Shown here: positions 3,754-44,063 of the stretch, piece by piece | How the letters are laid out: the number at the start of each line of letters is the position of its first letter | Position numbering within the stretch: the stretch's first letter is position 1 | DNA from: a virus | Virus genome (UHGV): UHGV-0039337 | Length of the DNA stretch: 64,000 nucleotides | Strand: one strand, 5' to 3' | Program-made: the position numbers and the translations under genes | Notes under the pieces: generated by a model | Databases searched by the model: none | What the model was told of the DNA's origin: nothing | The model's input: only the letters and a program-made list of their open reading frames with translations

Positions 3754-4936
3754 CGAATTTGTTATCGTGAGGCTTTTTATCCTTCACTTCTACGGCTATT
3801 AACCGTAGTCCAGCATATTTTTTCGTGTGATTACTAACTGTGAACACGGTGCGGCCTCGTGGGTTCATTATACTCCTTACTTATAAGGTAAGGGATCAGA
3901 ACCTATGCGTTGCGCCTGGTCGATATTACTATCGTCGCTCACATTACTGCTCGCTAGCTTTTCAGCACCTTCGGTCTCGAGTAGGCTGTCTTTTGACTTT
4001 ACGCCATCCTCGCTTAATTCCGCACTAATACTCTCAGGATTTCTCACAGTCTTATCCTGAGACGGCAATATTCTAAATACTTATTATATTTTCTATCTAA
4101 ATAAACGGTAGCATCTTTATATATATAATCAAATATTTTTTTTAACGAATCAATTTTAAAAATATTTAACGAAGGAACTCTATTTTTATTATTATATATA
4201 TGAATATCATCTTCTTTTAATGTAGAAGTATTTATGATGGCGTTTTTTATATCTTCTAGTACTTGGAAATTATAAGAAACAATTGACCATTTGCAATTTC
4301 CTTTTGTTTTCTTTTTGCCAGATAAACTAAAAGATCCATCTCCATCAAAAACGCCTCTTATAAAATGATGCATAAATTCTTCTGGGATGTTTGGAATTTT
4401 CCATCCATAAGTTTTATTGTGCATTACACCGAGTTCTCTTAATCTATTTGCCATATATGGATCTTGAATAGTAAGTCTATAATATGCATATCCAGATACT
4501 ATCCTAGTGCTGATTTTATGTTCAGCTTCCATATCTGTTTTAAATTTTTCTATGTGTTCCTTATCTTTTATGCATACTTCTAAACTATTCTTTTTTGATA
4601 AATGACCATCAGCAAATATAAAGCCTAACCAATATGCACTTTTTTCATTCCATTCATCAAAGAATTTATTATTAAAATATTTTTTATTATGTTGTGCATG
4701 TTTGGTATTTATTCCTTTTTCGTTAAATTTTTTAGCTAAATAATTTCTATCTCTTTCTAATAATTCAGCTACTTTTGTTAAACTTAATCCATTATTATAT
4801 AATTTGATTGCTATGTTTAATTCTTCTTCAGATATTGATTTTCTAGGCATAGTTAAATTTCTCCTTTATAAAAATATATTTAACTATTTATTACCTAGAC
4901 ATGCCGTTTATTTATTTAAGCATTTAAAAATTATCT
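3754..4936 (-). mobile_element. group I intron (about 1.18 kb) interrupting the UvrD-like helicase within Walker A codons
   Basis: A split P-loop gene. A LAGLIDADG ORF starts about 86 nt into the insert, with its own RBS. A GC-richer structured block of about 290 nt (3754-4043) lies 3' of the ORF. The 5' exon ends in U (GGT) and the intron ends in G. The spliced product reads TATAGAG|KTRVIV, a valid [AG]x4GKT P-loop. Confidence 0.65.
4044..4850 (-). CDS. LAGLIDADG homing endonuclease (intron-encoded)
   Basis: 268 aa with two LAGLIDADG motifs (YWLGFIFADGHL and FIRGVFDGDGSF). Near-paralog of ORF 36563..37357. Confidence 0.85.
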   Translation of the reverse strand: MPRKSISEEELNIAIKLYNNGLSLTKVAELLERDRNYLAKKFNEKGINTKHAQHNKKYFNNKFFDEWNEKSAYWLGFIFADGHLSKKNSLEVCIKDKEHIEKFKTDMEAEHKISTRIVSGYAYYRLTIQDPYMANRLRELGVMHNKTYGWKIPNIPEEFMHHFIRGVFDGDGSFSLSGKKKTKGNCKWSIVSYNFQVLEDIKNAIINTSTLKEDDIHIYNNKNRVPSLNIFKIDSLKKIFDYIYKDATVYLDRKYNKYLEYCRLRIRL

Positions 4937-7045: not shown

Positions 7046-7618
7046 TTAATTATTTTTTGCTAATAATTTACTAGCAGATTGTACTGATTTAGTATTTATT
7101 TTTCTGTTAGATTTTTGTTTAGGTTCTTCTGATGCATATAATGCTCTACCTTTAGCCCATTCTTCTAAATCTTTTATCTTTTCTTGAGAAGATATAGTTA
7201 TAGGTATTACATCATTTTTAGCTGCTATTAAATCTGCTTTAGTTACTTCAAACTTCTTACCTTCTTTGGTACATCTTAAGAATGCTTTCTTCATGCTATT
7301 TTTAACTATTTGTTCTATTTCTGCTCCAGTATATCCTTGAGTTTCTACTGCTATATCTTTTATTATTTTTTCAGATACATCTAAACCTTTTTTGTTTATA
7401 TGGACTTTGAATATTTCTTTTCTTTCTTCTAAGTTCGGAGTATTGAAAAACCATATATTATCGACTCTACCGGCTCTAGTTAATTCTGGTGGTAAATCTT
7501 TTACATTATTACTAGTCATAATACAGAATATACCATTAGTATTATCATTTAACATTTCTAATATAGTTCCAAAGACTCTTGATAAAGTCCCTGAATCTGA
7601 AGCGTTTGAACTTGCATA
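7046..7618 (-). CDS. AAA+ ATPase, exon 2 (sensor-1, arginine finger, sensor-2 region)
   Basis: The in-frame upstream extension reads ...YASSNASDSGTLSRVFGTILEMLNDNTNGIFCIMTSNNVKDLPPELTRAGRVD. This is the AAA+ second-region-of-homology (EMDG-like, TSN sensor-1, RAGR arginine). Confidence 0.7.
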   Translation of the reverse strand, partial: YASSNASDSGTLSRVFGTILEMLNDNTNGIFCIMTSNNVKDLPPELTRAGRVDNIWFFNTPNLEERKEIFKVHINKKGLDVSEKIIKDIAVETQGYTGAEIEQIVKNSMKKAFLRCTKEGKKFEVTKADLIAAKNDVIPITISSQEKIKDLEEWAKGRALYASEEPKQKSNRKINTKSVQSASKLLAKNN

Positions 7619-8776
7619 CGTTTTGTTATCAATAGGCTTTTTATCCTATTTTCTGGGGCATTATACCCATTATGAACCTGTTAATTCAGGTTCCAGTCCA
7701 GCATATCTTTTCATGGATTAAATACCACACCATGGAACGGCCTCGTGGACACATTATATTCTACATAGTAGTTTCAGTGTCTATGCGTTGCGGCTGGTTA
7801 AGCTTTTAAACTTATCCTTCACCTCTGATTACGGACATTACCCGCTTTCCAGATTTTTTCCGTTCTAATAATTCTAAGACTTCTGTGGTTTCGTCTTAGA
7901 ACGGCTAATAAATCGTCCTTTTTCATCTCTTGAGATATATGGATGCTCAAGAGCATGACAGTCTTGACATAATGTGATTCCGTTATTAATATCATTAAAT
8001 TCTTTTGAATTTAATATCTTATCTATATTCATATCATATTTATTGCATATATCATATAATTGATTTACATGGTGAGCATGTAAGTTCTTTTTTGTTTTAC
8101 ATTTAGAACATTCATATTTGTCTCTTTTAAGGATCTTTGCTCTCCATTCATCATATTTTTCATGCGTGCGTAAATAATGCGAAATTTCTTTGTAAGTTTC
8201 TTTCTTATTGGTTCTATATTCATCATAGCATTCTTTACTACAAAAGTGCTTTTCGGCTCTATTATATGCATATTTATTTTTTTCAAATTCTTTATTACAA
8301 TTATCACATATTACAATTTGAGTTTCTTTTTTTGCATATTCAATTCTGCATTTTTTATTACAGAAATGCAGATTATGTTTATTTTTAACAGCTAGCACTT
8401 CTTTTCCACAATTATTACATTTAACAAATTCTTTATTTTTACGTTGTTCTGCTATTCTGCATTCAATAGAACAATATTTTGGAATTTGTCCACGCTTACT
8501 TTGTTTATTATAATATGATTCTTTAAGCTTAAAATTTTTACCACAATGTTGACAAATAAGCGAAATTTCTTTACTATATTTTACTTTTCCTTCTTGTTTT
8601 GCTAATTTAGCATGCTCTTTACAGCAATGAAATACTTTATTTTTGCTTTCATTGTATCTTGTAATGGTAATTTTAAACTCTTTATTACAATAATTGCATT
8701 TGACTATCATTATATATCACGTCCTTAATATATTTATTTATTAAGGTATTACCGTGAATGAACGATTTATTTATTT
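7619..8776 (-). mobile_element. group I intron (about 1.16 kb) in AAA+ ATPase gene between Walker B and sensor-1
   Basis: Exon 1 ends ...IDEVEKNLGG (GGT, ends in U). An HNH ORF starts about 66 nt into the insert. The 255-nt structured block 7619-7873 carries the same conserved core (ggcctcgtgg ... ctatgcgttgcg) as the UvrD and clpX introns. The intron ends in G (acG|TAT). Confidence 0.6.
7874..8710 (-). CDS. HNH homing endonuclease with multiple zinc-ribbon repeats (intron-encoded)
   Basis: 278 aa with repeated CxxC...CxxC modules. The C-terminus HAHHVNQ...N...LCQDCHALEH is an HNH motif. Confidence 0.75.
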   Translation of the reverse strand: MIVKCNYCNKEFKITITRYNESKNKVFHCCKEHAKLAKQEGKVKYSKEISLICQHCGKNFKLKESYYNKQSKRGQIPKYCSIECRIAEQRKNKEFVKCNNCGKEVLAVKNKHNLHFCNKKCRIEYAKKETQIVICDNCNKEFEKNKYAYNRAEKHFCSKECYDEYRTNKKETYKEISHYLRTHEKYDEWRAKILKRDKYECSKCKTKKNLHAHHVNQLYDICNKYDMNIDKILNSKEFNDINNGITLCQDCHALEHPYISRDEKGRFISRSKTKPQKS

Positions 8777-9811
8777 ACCTCCCAAGTTCTTCTCTACCTC
8801 ATCTATTAATAATACACAAGGAGCACAAGATTCAACTAAAGTTTTAACTTGAGCAATCTTTCTTTCTGATTCACCAACAAATTTAGTAAGGACAGAACTC
8901 ATATTTAATTTTAAAAATGGTACGTTTAATTCATTAGCTATAACTTCTGCCATATAACTTTTACTAGATCCTGGAACTCCTAATGCTAAATATCCTTTAG
9001 GCATATCAATACCTATTTCTCTAGCTTTAGGAGACATACATATTTTAGTTTCTTCGAACCATTCTTTAAATCTATGATTACCTCCTACATCATTCATTGT
9101 TGCTTTTGCCTCTTTGTAGTCTAACAAACCACTTGATTTTATCATAGATATTTTCTTTTCTTTTAACATTTCATAACTTAATTCATCATATTTAACATAT
9201 GATTCATCAAGAATTTCTATTATTTCTCTTCTACTATAACCTATAAAGTATTTATATACTTCTTCTGTATCTATTTCTTGATTTCTTACTTCAGCATAAT
9301 CATTTATTAATTCTTTTATATCTTCATCTGTTAATTCGTCATAATTTAATTCTTTAAACAAATGGTCTAATGTTGCATTTGATTGATGAGTAGGACTAAT
9401 AACTATAATAGGAGTATATATAGATTGTTTAAATTCTAATATTTCTCTGAATACTCTGGACCATGCATAATTTCCATATAATAAATCCATATCTTTTAAT
9501 ATGATAGCTGATAGTTCCATACTTTCTTTATCGCTTTGTATCTTATTATATAAAGATAATATAGCGGCACCACTAGTACCATTTTTAACTCCACTACTTT
9601 TATCTAGCATTTCTTTTACTATATTATTTTTACTATCAGTATTTAATTTATATATACCGGAAGATGGTTCAAAATCATATATAACATCTATACCTTCTTC
9701 TTTTAGAGTATTTATAACAGAAGCTACAACTTCTTTTTCTTGTTCAGATTTAATCCATATAGCTTCTTTTTTTATTTCTAATAATAAAGCTAATTCTTTA
9801 TTAAATTTCAC
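8777..9811 (-). CDS. AAA+ ATPase, exon 1 (N-domain plus Walker A/B)
   Basis: About 345 aa with Walker A GVPGSSKS, FVGESERKI, and Walker B VLLIDEVEK. Confidence 0.7.
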
Positions 9812-36250: not shown

Positions 36251-37441
36251 CGTTCGTTATTAGCGCATAGTTTTTTATCTATGCCTCTGGGCCATTACAG
36301 CCATTTTCATCGGTGTGTTAATTCACACTCAGTCTAGCGTACTTGTTTACGTAATTTACTTGGACAAAACGTAGGACGGCCTCTTGGTGCATTATTTCAG
36401 CACTACGCGTTGCGCCTGACGTGTTGACATATCAACACTCACTATATCACTATAGCTTATCCACTTTTATAGTGGCGCCTTCGGGCTCGAATACACTGTA
36501 TGCAATTTACAATCATACTTTACGTGATCTTCGCTTAATTCCATCCTCATAATCTAGAGTCTTCATTGTCCTTTTGGCTCTAGACGGCAGTAATCTAAGT
36601 ATTTTTTATATTTTCTATCTAAATATATTGTAGCATCTTTATATAACCATTTTAAAAATGCTTCTAACGCTTTAGTACTTGATATATTTAATTCAGGTAT
36701 TTTATAGTCATATTCATAAATTCTAATATGATCTATGGTTTCTTCAACATTATATTTAATAGTTTCTATTAATGATTCTAAAACTGTTCTATCATAGCAT
36801 ATAATTCTAAAAGTAGTACTACCTTTAGTTCTTATGTTTAGGTTTCCATCTCCATCGTATAATCCTCTTATAAAATGATTCATATATTCATTAGGTATAT
36901 CTGGAACAACCCATCCATATGTTTTGTTATGCACTACTCCTAGTTCTTTTAATTTTGTTGCTATAATTTTATCTCTTATATTTATTCTATAATAATCAGT
37001 TCCATTTATTGTTTTTATTCCTACTTTGTGGCTGCTTTCTATATCTGCTTTAAATTTTTCTATGTGTTCTTTATCTTTTATACATATGTCGAGTCCTCCA
37101 TCTTCTGATAAATATCCATCAGCAAATATAAAACCTAACCAATAAGCACTTTTTTCATTCCATTCATTAAAGAAATTACTATTAACTGATTTTTTATTAT
37201 AATGTTGAACTATATTAACACCTGCGGCTTTCATTCTAATAGAAAGCGTACCTCTGTCTCTTTTTAACTGTTTTGCTATTTTAGTAATACTTAAGCCTTC
37301 ATTAAACATATTAGTGGCTTGTTGTATCTCTTCATCTGATATCCTCAAGATAATCACTCCATATTGTGTATTTATCTCTATATTACCGCTACCAGATGAT
37401 CTAATAGAAAATATTGTAAATTTTACTTAGATTATTTGTTT
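36251..37441 (-). mobile_element. group I intron (about 1.19 kb) in clpX inside the Walker A codons (GPTG|SGKS)
   Basis: Exon 1 ends GPTG (GGT, U) then KQII-stop. A LAGLIDADG ORF starts about 84 nt into the insert. The 312-nt structured block 36251-36562 shares the core (ggacggcctcttggtg ... ctacgcgttgcgcctg) with the UvrD and AAA+ introns. Exon 2 begins after acG. Confidence 0.65.
36563..37357 (-). CDS. LAGLIDADG homing endonuclease (intron-encoded)
   Basis: 264 aa with YWLGFIFADGYL and FIRGLYDGDGNL. Over half its residues look identical to ORF 4044..4850 by eye. Confidence 0.85.
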   Translation of the reverse strand: MIILRISDEEIQQATNMFNEGLSITKIAKQLKRDRGTLSIRMKAAGVNIVQHYNKKSVNSNFFNEWNEKSAYWLGFIFADGYLSEDGGLDICIKDKEHIEKFKADIESSHKVGIKTINGTDYYRINIRDKIIATKLKELGVVHNKTYGWVVPDIPNEYMNHFIRGLYDGDGNLNIRTKGSTTFRIICYDRTVLESLIETIKYNVEETIDHIRIYEYDYKIPELNISSTKALEAFLKWLYKDATIYLDRKYKKYLDYCRLEPKGQ

Positions 37442-43979: not shown

Positions 43980-44063
43980 TGGAGCCAATAGTAGGAATTG
44001 AACCTGCATCTGTAAAGATAAAATAAATTATTTTTACCGTTCTTACAATTGAACTATATCGGC
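43980..44063 (-). tRNA. tRNA-like gene with encoded CCA and atypically expanded anticodon arm (identity undetermined)
   Basis: The minus strand reads GCCGATA-TA-GTTC-AATTGTAA-GAAC-G-[GTAAA-16nt-TTTAC]-AGAT-GCAGG-TTCAATT-CCTAC-TATTGGC-T-CCA. The acceptor, D-arm and T-arm (GTTCAATTC T-loop) are good. The anticodon region is 26 nt instead of 17. Confidence 0.5.

Follow-up and report, generated by a model that had tools for sequence, protein, structure and literature searches.

In the 64,000-nt stretch of viral DNA analysed here (the window), positions 7619-8776 of the − strand are a group I intron of 1158 nt, interrupting the gene for a phage AAA+ ATPase. The explanation that fits best, and in which we have high confidence, is a mobile phage IA-type group I intron carrying an HNH homing endonuclease gene (HEG) in L1, the loop of its extended P1 helix, with a HEG history separate from that of the ribozyme.

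An interrupted AAA+ ATPase gene

The intron and its flanking exons are arranged as follows.

8777..9811, − strand: AAA+ exon 1 (from the ORF list), with Walker A and Walker B; ends …DEVEKNLGG, last codon GGU
7619..8776, − strand: AAA+ group I intron; the exon ends in U (8777) at the 5' splice site and the intron in G (7619)
7046..7618, − strand: AAA+ exon 2, starting YASSNASDSGTLSRVFG…; sensor and lid domains

A preliminary description of the sequence had placed the intron at these limits, and they prove correct: the spliced protein (Pfam AAA, E = 6e-25) equals its intron-less homologues at the junction, residue for residue. Specifically, the predicted junction (…LLIDEVEKNLGG|YASSNASDSG…) is uninterrupted in intron-less homologues, and LLIDEVEKxLGGYxSSNASDSG runs across the splice site in the intron-less P0042 (78% identical), P0044, P0048, P0049 and P0051. 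In line with a group I intron, the insert ends in G (7619) and ligation of the exons at the predicted junction restores the frame. The exon 1 RNA ends in …GGA GGU, and exon-frame stop codons follow immediately in the insert. The contigs compared for this intron are metagenomic; megablast of the whole AAA+ gene against 50,697 phage records gave no match, and the spliced protein found no related locus in IMG/VR. The host of the intron is a large phage of about 250-265 kb. In related contigs, gene callers give two separate AAA products.

RNA structure and core family

The window has two further introns with cores of the AAA+ core's family; each interrupts a Walker A motif and carries a LAGLIDADG ORF.

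3754..4936, − strand: intron in a UvrD-like helicase gene (Walker A …AGAG|KT…); core sub-variant B
4044-4850, − strand: HTH-LAGLIDADG ORF of the UvrD intron
36251..37441, − strand: intron in a ClpX-like gene (Walker A …GPTG|SGKS…); core sub-variant B
36563-37357, − strand: HTH-LAGLIDADG ORF of the ClpX intron

The preliminary description had reported a conserved core block shared by the three introns. This block is present, and the similarity spans the entire core instead of an isolated short match. Its two motifs (RNA version on the − strand, CGCAACGCAUAG…CCACGAGGCC) are GGCCTCGTGG, at 7739-7748, 3853-3862 and, with one mismatch, 36378-36387 (3 matches versus 0.10 expected; at least 3 in 0/100 shuffles), and CTATGCGTTGCG, at 7781-7792, 3903-3914 and, with one mismatch, 36403-36414. 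An nhmmer profile gives exactly three full-length matches in the 64 kb (7695-7866, 3807-4026 and 36331-36547, all on the − strand). A covariance model (R1), built on 32 introns from other phages and none from the window, finds the same three − strand places only, the next match having E = 0.33. The AAA+, UvrD and ClpX introns score E = 7e-36 (AAA+ core), 4e-27 and 4e-20, with 140.5, 107.8 and 81.8 bits over the full model length. Because one model finds all three, and because P3, P4, P6, P7, P7.1 and P8 are common to them with covariation, the likeness is not a short chance match between differing structures. The core family is widespread among phages and includes, besides the UvrD and ClpX introns, two gyrA introns of phage AR9.

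The Rfam group I model (Intron_gpI, RF00028) gave no match at its gathering score in the window, at E < 10 in 7400-9000, or at E < 1 in six loci of ORF-less relatives; therefore, the group I assignment rests on the structure derived here and not on a curated model. The only Rfam match in the window at gathering score was tRNA-like, and ARAGORN gives no support for a tRNA. At E < 10 in 7400-9000, Rfam also returned RAGATH-22 (21.6 versus 120 bits, E = 0.21), which we take as chance or a distant echo; no mention of RAGATH-22 was found in the literature. Rfam and GISSD models are documented to miss parts of phage introns (PMC11878797).

The elements 5' of the core surround or overlap the ORF.

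8757..8771, − strand: 5' strand of the P1 extension (AAUAAAUCGU…), pairing with 7907-7921 across the ORF
8718..8757, − strand: HEG leader hairpin (UCACG…CCUUAAUA/UAUUAAGG…CGUGA; fold −13.1 kcal/mol, z = −1.8)
7874..8710, − strand: putative HNH homing-endonuclease ORF, 278 aa
7903..7905, − strand: guide sequence GCC inside the last ORF codons, pairing with the exon-final GGU, with U•G at the splice site
7872..7901, − strand: P2 hairpin (UUCUAAGAC/GUCUUAGAA), an inverted repeat, also in the minimum free energy (MFE) fold of the ORF-deleted intron

The pairing of 8757-8771 with 7907-7921 is the longest inverted repeat within the intron, and the UvrD and ClpX introns, like the orthologues L023, L048 and L049, have an equivalent P1-extension helix of differing sequence. 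The exon codon GGU precedes each of the three window introns, and the guide GCC is conserved in 3/3. Exon and guide covary further in relatives (CACGGU/GCCGUG in L043; CAUGGU/GCCAUG in L012). The AAA+ intron thus has a P1 with U•G at its 5' splice site, in which the exon contributes just 3 bp (GGU/GCC), as in the other window introns, and a 10-15 bp intron-intron helix extends the pairing. ACCUU, GUUC and similar sequences of the 5' leader were dropped as guides in favour of the conserved GCC 3' of the ORF body. Each of the three window introns has its ORF in L1, with the guide and P2 located 3' of the ORF body, where they overlap the final ORF codons; in the AAA+ intron, the stop codon UAG (7874-7876) falls within the P2 3' strand. 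Accordingly, the preliminary placing of the HEG start at about 66 nt into all three introns holds in number for the AAA+ intron only (86 nt for UvrD, 84 nt for ClpX), whereas the structural position is indeed the same. An AAGGA ribosome-binding site, 9 nt ahead of the AUG, is enclosed in the AAA+ leader hairpin; L048 (z = −3.5) and the UvrD intron (z = −3.1) have equivalent hairpins. The leaders of the three window introns have a GGUAAUA motif and an A-rich start in common. The endonuclease gene in the P1 loop is the one unusual anatomical feature of the AAA+ intron.

The core and the 3' part are composed of the following elements.

7700..7865, − strand: catalytic core (covariation over 35 cores; covariance-model match as above)
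7860-7865 with 7735-7740, − strand: P3
7850-7853 with 7824-7827, − strand: P4
7831-7845, − strand: P5
7796-7817, − strand: P6
7782-7788 with 7700-7705, − strand: P7 (A[C]GCAUA/UAUGCU), in a pseudoknot with P3
7748-7781, − strand: P7.1/P7.2, between P7 and the P3 3' strand
7741-7747, − strand: conserved CACGAGG
7712-7734, − strand: P8
7706-7711, − strand: J8/7 (AAAAGA)
7619..7699, − strand: P9 domain and tail (MFE fold), with hairpins GGAACCUGAAUUAACAGGUUC, GGGUAUAAUGCCC and AUAGGAUAAAAAGCCUAU, and tail GAUAACAAAACG with the terminal G as its end

Across 35 cores, the 32 pairs of P3, P4, P6, P7, P7.1 and P8 are paired in 93.8% of cells, versus 72.3% in shuffled alignments, and the covariation score is 0.564, versus 0.156 after shuffling and ~0.07 with partners slid. 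P5 was omitted from these counts and from the covariance model because no single register fits sub-variants A and B. P3, P7.1 and P8 are 97-100% paired, with both-side changes in four or five pairs each; P7.1, of 5 bp, is 99.4% paired with both sides changed in four pairs. The inner stem of P7.2 (CUAC/GUAG) is present in the AAA+ intron and in part of the family. Five of the six P7 pairs are invariant and therefore provide no covariation evidence, while an A-U to G-C switch occurs in three sequences. The P7 3' strand lies outside P3 with P8 between them, which gives the P3/P7 pseudoknot. P7 with its bulge and J8/7 fit a guanosine site by sequence, and AAAAGA followed by UAUGCU resembles the Tetrahymena counterpart, AAGAUAUAGUC. 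A different P7, CCAGC/GCUGG, was rejected: its 3' partner varies in the family, whereas GCAUA/UAUGC is invariant save for the compensated switch. The 3' tail GAUAAAAAGCC…GAUAACA…G is conserved family-wide, and the ORF-deleted intron folds as extended P1, P2 and P3-P9 (MFE). As part of our preferred explanation, we assign the AAA+ intron with high confidence to the phage IA type of group I introns, the P7.1/P7.2 insertion being located between P7 and P3'.

We propose that this RNA is self-splicing. The 10-15 bp helix closing the loop would bring the 5' splice site (GGU|A) to the guide GCC, about 870 nt downstream, and two guanosine-dependent transesterifications would then excise the intron and restore …EKNLGG-YASSNASDSG…. 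Because the guide and P2 are encoded by the last ORF codons, translation of the ORF end and formation of P1 and P2 should be mutually exclusive on one transcript, and the two processes may be coupled. This overlap is an inbuilt and testable conflict between HEG translation and splicing. Additionally, the leader hairpin may have a regulatory role, as it would mask the ORF ribosome-binding site.

The endonuclease gene and its history

The HNH gene is the only ORF in the AAA+ intron, and neither the ORF list nor Pfam or PHROG shows a reverse-transcriptase ORF. The protein had been described as an HNH enzyme with four or more zinc-ribbon repeats, which agrees with what we observe. Four CxxC…CxxxC zinc fingers (residues about 5-33, 53-84, 98-121 and 135-161) are followed by a zinc-bearing HNH domain (C201, C204, H213, H214, N243, C248, C251, H252 and H256) that has its own CxxC/CxxC pair beyond the four N-terminal fingers. 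C201, H213, H214, N243, H252 and H256 do not vary, and conservation is at least 90% for C204, C248 and C251. In line with this, the ORF matches PHROG 1271 (E = 4e-19), and the best Foldseek match of its AF2 model (pLDDT 87.6) is the GVE2 HNH protein 5h0m, at probability 1.0; Pfam HNH_2 lies slightly under its cut-off (19.8 versus 21 bits). The UvrD and ClpX intron ORFs match LAGLIDADG_3 (E = 6e-8 and 1e-6; 33.2 and 29.3 bits, with the cut-off at 22.5) and PHROG 4645 (E = 4e-52 and 6e-46). The HNH product is probably a homing endonuclease, which presumably nicks or cuts the intron-less AAA+ gene near the insertion site, and repair would then copy the intron in. As far as could be ascertained, the four-finger enzyme has no published biochemical characterisation; it may be of interest for target-recognition studies.

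The preliminary suggestion of independent HEG invasion or replacement is supported by three lines of evidence: the variety of HEG classes in L1, HEG polymorphism, and a mismatch between HEG and core divergence. First, L1 of related cores in other phages holds a LAGLIDADG gene (in both sub-variants), a Zn-finger-HNH gene or nothing, and other HNH and LAGLIDADG genes are located in P5 or P8 of related cores. Second, intron-less alleles occur at the fixed AAA+ site, and orthologous introns in 250-265 kb phages have a HEG that is full (L055), internally deleted (L053 and L056) or absent (L054). Third, the HEG module (HEG plus leader) is 92-94% identical to that of L055 at the DNA level, and the HEG coding part 94%, whereas identity is 73-75% in the flanking AAA+ exons and 53% in the P3-P7' core. 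Protein conservation, rather than co-conversion, may account for the high identity in the last 40 nt of exon 1.

This mismatch could also arise if intron and HNH gene had always travelled as one unit and differed in substitution rate rather than in history, an explanation that we consider unlikely. The HNH family is strictly tied to the AAA+ gene and site, and stems can change fast by compensation, as the compensatory differences of P2 and P3 from L055 illustrate. Vertical co-inheritance, however, predicts a synonymous divergence of the HEG at least as large as that of the exons, and the HEG is the more conserved part although the exons on either side belong to an essential gene. Moreover, the AAA+ and L055 cores differ not by scattered changes but by the entire P6 domain and a coordinated A/B signature (J3/4, the P4-P6 segment and J6/7), and the HEG is truncated or missing in orthologous introns.

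More improbable still is a replacement within this genome, in which the AAA+ intron would be a copy of a UvrD/ClpX-type intron with LAGLIDADG exchanged for HNH. The common L1 position of the three ORFs, the shared leader motif and A-rich start, and the exon GGU before each intron are what such a copy would display, and the preliminary description had likewise assigned the three introns to one lineage. The three cores are indeed of one family, but the AAA+ core, by its J3/4, P4-P6 and J6/7, is of sub-variant A and is not closest to its neighbours. It is 64% identical to the UvrD core and 55% to the ClpX core. In the core tree, the latter two are mutual nearest neighbours, and the AAA+ core groups with sub-variant A cores of other phages (nearest, L028, 79% identical). 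Additionally, a Zn-finger-HNH gene occupies the same AAA+ site in other phages, with HEG identity between 92% and 32%; the lowest value in syntenic contigs is 44%, and L023 has the 32%. The association therefore predates this genome. The preliminary description is accordingly corrected in two respects: the AAA+ core is not derived from the neighbouring UvrD or ClpX introns, and the Zn-finger-HNH gene, which is tied to the AAA+ site throughout a wide lineage of phages, did not come from another intron of this genome. It is highly improbable that the locus is two genes around a free-standing HNH gene, an intein or a group II intron, as the two AAA products called in related contigs and the lack of an Rfam intron match might suggest, given that intron-less homologues run without a break across the exact junction, a covarying group I core with a P3/P7 pseudoknot lies between ORF and exon 2, the exon-frame stops directly after GGU exclude an intein, and the sole intron ORF is HNH, with no reverse-transcriptase ORF.

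We therefore retain the explanation of a mobile intron whose HEG has its own history. In this phage intron family, endonuclease genes of different classes have come in, degenerated and been swapped without the ribozyme taking part; the HNH gene would have arrived either by invading an empty intron or by replacing an earlier HEG. That HEGs and the ribozymes sheltering them evolve as separate modules is an old idea, of which the AAA+ intron is a clear but ordinary illustration. The window and its metagenomic relatives display the stages of the cycle, namely intron-less, ORF-less, full HEG and decaying HEG, and one HEG is common to two different core variants. On the practical side, three essential phage genes in the window are liable to be mis-annotated as split or truncated because the Rfam group I model misses this intron family, and R1 with its annotated alignment can be used for annotating it. 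A bolder proposal, which we put forward only tentatively and think more likely wrong than right, is that the family is a distinct, widespread group I subgroup missed by curated models, with the P1 loop as a docking site at which cores exchange endonuclease cassettes of unrelated classes, the four-finger HNH enzyme as a natural zinc-finger nuclease whose array reads a long target in modular fashion, and the A/B switch as the mark of two interchangeable versions of the triple-helix scaffold.

Comparison with known systems

By blastn, the core is linked to the ORF-less gyrA introns of Bacillus phage AR9/PBS1 (KU878088), in which AR9_g044 is annotated as a CDS joined from three pieces. Both AR9 introns, which are included in the alignment behind R1, are members of this core family, with 72% identity across 79% of the 3' core. 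They have CGCAACGCAUAG…CCAMGAGRCC, J8/7 AAAAGAUAUGCU, the tail GAUAAAAAGCC…AAUAAC…G, a guide GCC after exon GGU, and a P2 hairpin. Unlike the AAA+ intron, they are about 350 nt long, with a plain L1 hairpin and no endonuclease gene, are of sub-variant B, and reside in another host gene of another host phage.

The orf142 introns of Staphylococcus phage Twort, of subgroup IA2 (ribozyme crystal structure 1Y0Q), are similar by eye in a GCAACG element before P7, a P7-P3' insertion, J8/7 GAUAU-P7'-GAAC and a 3' tail ending …GUAACAUAAUUG. However, none was found by the nhmmer profile at E < 10 or by R1 at E < 1, and what they share with the AAA+ intron is subgroup architecture, not family. The three Twort introns compared have no ORF, unlike the AAA+ intron.

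The GVE2 HNH protein (5h0m) shares the C-terminal ββα-metal HNH with structural zinc (Foldseek TM 0.63 on the target) but has no finger array. The HNH proteins of PHROG 1271 include the 'five-Zn-finger' HNH protein of Haloferax tailed virus 1 (HFTV1): alignments with the HFTV1 and Halorubrum virus proteins cover 72-77% of the length, fingers included, yet these haloviral proteins are just 23-26% identical to the AAA+ ORF product.

The ORFs of T4 introns are located in P6 or P9, whereas the AAA+ HEG lies in L1 with the guide 3' of the ORF body. In the T4 td, nrdB and sunY introns and in phage introns of the SPO1/SP82/Bastille type, related group I cores carry endonuclease genes of different families, HEG mobility is independent of the core and HEG colonisation is mosaic (Bell-Pedersen et al. 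1990, cited in PMC12908238; survey of Bastillevirinae, PMC11878797). HNH HEGs of Bastillevirinae have NUMOD-type modules (PMC11878797), in place of which the AAA+ enzyme has a four-zinc-finger array. The AAA+ intron is thus a further example of an already documented phenomenon, the mosaic colonisation of phage group I introns by HEGs.

The interrupted AAA+ gene and the shared intron core

The AAA+ ATPase gene of the window is split into two exons by a group I intron:

8777-9811, minus strand: exon 1, ending …CAPCVLLIDEVEKNLGG with GGU as its last codon and stop codons directly after
7619-8776, minus strand: intron carrying the HNH homing-endonuclease gene (HEG)
7046-7618, minus strand: exon 2, starting YASSNASDSGTLSRVFG…

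The spliced protein matches Pfam AAA (E = 6e-25) and AAA_lid_3. A junction-spanning query retrieved many homologues, and the uninterrupted ones (P0042, 78% identical, P0044, P0048, P0049 and P0051) read LLIDEVEKxLGGYxSSNASDSG, the same as the predicted ligation product. The intron therefore occupies 7619-8776, the limits proposed in the preliminary description; it is preceded by U and its final base is G. A search of 50,697 deposited phage records gave no close match to the window. Its relatives L053-L056 (related intron loci) lie on metagenomic contigs of 249-264 kb, and the window is therefore probably a member of a jumbo phage lineage lacking such a match. Elsewhere in the window, Rfam places a tRNA at 43983-44063 (minus strand; 47.7 bits) with an encoded CCA end and a 16-nt segment replacing the 7-nt anticodon loop; ARAGORN called no tRNA at this position, which could hold a pseudo-tRNA or a tRNA bearing a short insert.

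The core block that the AAA+ intron was said to share with the UvrD and ClpX introns is indeed common to them. Specifically, GGCCTCGTGG and CTATGCGTTGCG occur in identical order and strand in 3/3 interrupted genes of the window, with three matches to GGCCTCGTGG against 0.10 expected, and the similarity extends beyond the motifs, the aligned post-ORF regions showing 66% mean column identity. A short chance match between differing structures, the alternative raised in the preliminary description, does not account for this likeness, as a covariance model (R1) trained on 32 introns from outside the window matches all three at full length.

Matches of R1 in the window
7695-7866, minus strand: AAA+ intron, 140.5 bits, E = 7e-36, full model length
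3807-4026, minus strand: UvrD intron, 107.8 bits, E = 4e-27, full model length
36331-36547, minus strand: ClpX intron, 81.8 bits, E = 4e-20, full model length

The best R1 match after these has only E = 0.33, and an nhmmer profile of 35 cores gives exactly three matches in the window. A pattern derived from the motifs retrieved 43 loci from IMG/VR, and distant blastn relates the core to two ORF-less introns in gyrA of Bacillus phage AR9/PBS1, whose record annotates the gene as a three-piece CDS join. Rfam RF00028 left the intron family undetected, ORF-less members included. RAGATH-22 of Rfam weakly matches the 3' half of the AAA+ intron (7626-7758, minus strand; E = 0.21; 21.6 bits, with a gathering score of 120), the two having in common GUGUCC-GAGGCC and the hairpin loop UGAAUUAACA; this match is probably due to chance, though a piece of a related intron could underlie RAGATH-22. 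None of the papers searched mentions RAGATH-22.

Core structure and sub-variants

We scored 32 pairs on a 35-sequence alignment, comprising P3 (6 bp), P4 (four positions, with conserved pairs at three), P6, P7, P7.1 (5 bp) and P8 (5 bp). Standard pairs fill 93.8% of cells (72.3% when shuffled), both-sided changes occur in 22/32 pairs, and the covariation score is 0.564, compared with 0.156 for shuffled data and 0.04-0.09 with partners slid by 1-3 columns. Pairing reaches 100% in P3, where four pairs covary, 99.4% in P7.1 and 97% in P8. P7 (A[C]GCAUA/UAUGCU), set down as a pseudoknot with P3, varies only in ClpX, L038 and L044, where a compensated switch replaces A-U by G-C. From 5' to 3', P3 surrounds P4-P6 and the P7 5' strand, followed by the P3 3' strand, P8, J8/7 and the P7 3' strand, the layout of a group I core. 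A P7.1/P7.2 insertion, a mark of subgroup IA, is located between P7 and P3'. The motif CGCAACGCAUAG runs from the terminal part of J6/7 through the P7 5' strand to the opening base of P7.1, and CCACGAGGCC runs from the closing base of P7.1 through CACGAGG, which is conserved and single-stranded, into the beginning of P3'. Twort IA2 introns resemble the window core by eye; neither the nhmmer family profile nor R1 detects them.

Between the window and its closest relatives (L055, L046 and L048), P3 shows a clean compensatory change, GAACGG/CCGUUC versus GAAGGG/CCCUUC (7860-7865/7735-7740). Additionally, the internal guide sequence (IGS) region GCCGUUCUAA (7896-7904) repeats the P3 3' strand sequence GGCCGUUC and is therefore able to form 9 bp with the P3 5' strand UUAGAACGG (7860-7868), a pairing that would take the place of P2 and P3. 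The ClpX intron has a comparable alternative pairing, and such a pairing could act as a folding switch or trap.

The cores fall into two sub-variants, which switch jointly at three places.

Core sub-variants
Sub-variant A: J3/4 AAAAAAU; between P4 and P6 GAGGUGAAGG; J6/7 CCAGC; window member, AAA+ intron
Sub-variant B: J3/4 AAUUAAG; between P4 and P6 GAGNCCGAAGG; J6/7 UCAGG; window members, UvrD and ClpX introns

The UvrD and ClpX cores, which the core tree joins as sisters, are 64% and 55% identical, respectively, to the AAA+ core, whose nearest relative is L028 (79%), an ORF-less intron of another phage. In family alignments A3 and A8, the joint switch (window 7853-7859, 7819-7826 and 7793-7797) extends to orthologues sharing one insertion site, of which the window and L048 have A and L046, L055 and L049 have B. 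It may reflect coupled tertiary contacts (a triple-helix scaffold) or patchy recombination.

The UvrD (3754-4936, minus strand) and ClpX (36251-37441, minus strand) introns both split Walker A (P-loop) codons of unrelated ATPases, at …AGAG|KT… and …GPTG|SGKS…, respectively, and their cores are 67% identical. The shared target, the sister cores and the 51% identity of their HEGs suggest that transposition into a similar site gave rise to one of them from the other. Close relatives differ in whether they have the UvrD intron: L046 and L055 have an unbroken helicase, and a LAGLIDADG ORF occupies this position in L047, L053, L054 and L056. Among L053-L056 this pattern is opposite to that of the full-length HNH gene, found only in L055; L046 and L047 both have an HNH gene.

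Position of the ORF in an extended P1

A guide sequence within the 66-nt leader was rejected, as a conserved GCC downstream of the ORF body pairs with the exon GGU. This GCC, conserved in 3/3 window introns, lies just 3' of the ORF body within the last ORF codons, and it covaries with the exon in compact relatives (CAUGGU/GCCAUG in L012; CACGGU/GCCGUG in L043). Read off the sequences of six introns, the strand directly 5' of GCC pairs with intron nucleotides ~6-19.

Pairing in the P1 extensions
AAA+ (window): AAUAAAUCGU/ACGAUUUAUU
UvrD (window): UUUUAAAUGCUU/AAGUAUUUAGAA, including G•U pairs
ClpX (window): AAUCUAAGUA/UACUUAGAUU
L048: AUAAGUCGU/ACGAUUUAU
L049: UUGUCCUUU/AAAGGACAA
L023: AUUAAAUAAUAA/UUAUUAUUUAAU

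In the AAA+ intron the extension (7907-7921 with 8757-8771) is the longest inverted repeat. Because this pairing spans the ORF, the ORF sits in the loop of the extended P1 (L1), a loop that is a short hairpin in the AR9 introns and L054. P2 directly follows the guide sequence and contains the ORF stop codon, and the predicted fold of the AAA+ intron without its ORF consists of the P1 extension, P2 and P3-P9. In each of the three window introns a predicted leader hairpin masks the ribosome-binding site or start codon, from which we infer a possible regulatory role.

The C-terminal tail of the intron-borne HNH proteins (…RDEKGRFISRS…, last ~20 residues; 7874-7930) is highly conserved in homologue alignment A6 despite low predicted-structure confidence. 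Since the tail codons also make up the 3' strand of the P1 extension, the guide sequence and P2, its conservation probably stems from RNA constraint on a dual-use sequence.

Endonuclease turnover and comparison with known introns

The AAA+ intron ORF encodes 278 aa with four CxxC…CxxxC fingers followed at the C-terminus by an HNH domain whose zinc site is CxxC/CxxC, and it matches PHROG 1271 (E = 4e-19), in agreement with the HNH enzyme with at least four zinc repeats described earlier; Pfam HNH_2 and zf-FCS each score slightly under cut-off. Across 27 homologues, H213, H214, N243, H252, H256 and most cysteines are invariant or nearly so, and many homologues have a fifth finger. The AlphaFold model has a pLDDT of 87.6 and a pTM of 0.51, the latter fitting a protein predicted to resemble beads on a string. 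In the structure search it is closest to the GVE2 HNH endonuclease (5h0m, probability 1.0); Cas5-HNH, T5 SciA and T4 endonuclease VII rank next, and the fingers are YacG-like. The UvrD and ClpX intron ORFs are HTH-LAGLIDADG proteins of PHROG 4645.

Across the family, LAGLIDADG genes occupy L1 of both B cores (L005, L010, L013, L015, L038) and A cores (L018, L019), and zinc-finger HNH genes occupy that of L023 and L034. Other insertions are a different HNH gene in P5 of L033, an ORF with an HNH-like motif in P5 of L014 (without Pfam hit) and L021, and a LAGLIDADG remnant in P8 of L043; many members are ORF-less. On syntenic contigs, all homologues with 44-92% identity to the window HNH protein are flanked by the two parts of this AAA+ gene, and the HNH genes of L023 and L034 (32% identical) occupy the same site. 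Among L053-L056, contigs with an identical exon-2 protein, L055 has a full HEG (280 aa), L053 and L056 retain only the leader fused to ~130 nt from the ORF's 3' end, and in L054 a clean short hairpin replaces the ORF.

Nucleotide identity between the window and L055
Exon 1 (9080-8820): 72.8%
Last 40 nt of exon 1: 92.5%
Intron leader: 92.4%
HEG: 94.0%
P1-extension 3' strand, IGS and P2: 77.6%
Core, P3 to P7' (sub-variant A versus B, with different P6): 52.6%
P9 to intron end: 84%
Exon 2: 74.6%

The HEG is far more alike than the exons or the core, and the HEG module therefore has a much more recent common origin than either the host gene or the ribozyme. The HEG and the core have had separate histories. 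The proposal of independent HEG invasion or replacement within one intron lineage is thus upheld as to these differing histories; the AAA+ core is nevertheless nearest L028, not UvrD or ClpX, and the HNH gene has long been tied to the AAA+ site.

That related introns carry unrelated HEG families, that HEGs move independently of cores, and that they invade, decay and are lost are long-established ideas, and Stoddard reportedly made the same points in 2014. For phage group I introns they are found in Bell-Pedersen 1990 and the SPO1/SP82 work, according to passages of PMC12908238 citing them. A 2025 survey of Bastillevirinae describes a mosaic of HEG colonisation and a heterogeneous IA2 subgroup, with parts of phage introns missed by Rfam and GISSD models (PMC11878797). 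Added here are a well-defined intron family with a usable covariance model, an ORF in L1 whose end is overlapped by the guide sequence and P2, and a putative four-finger HNH enzyme, which extend an already known kind of system with new members and details.
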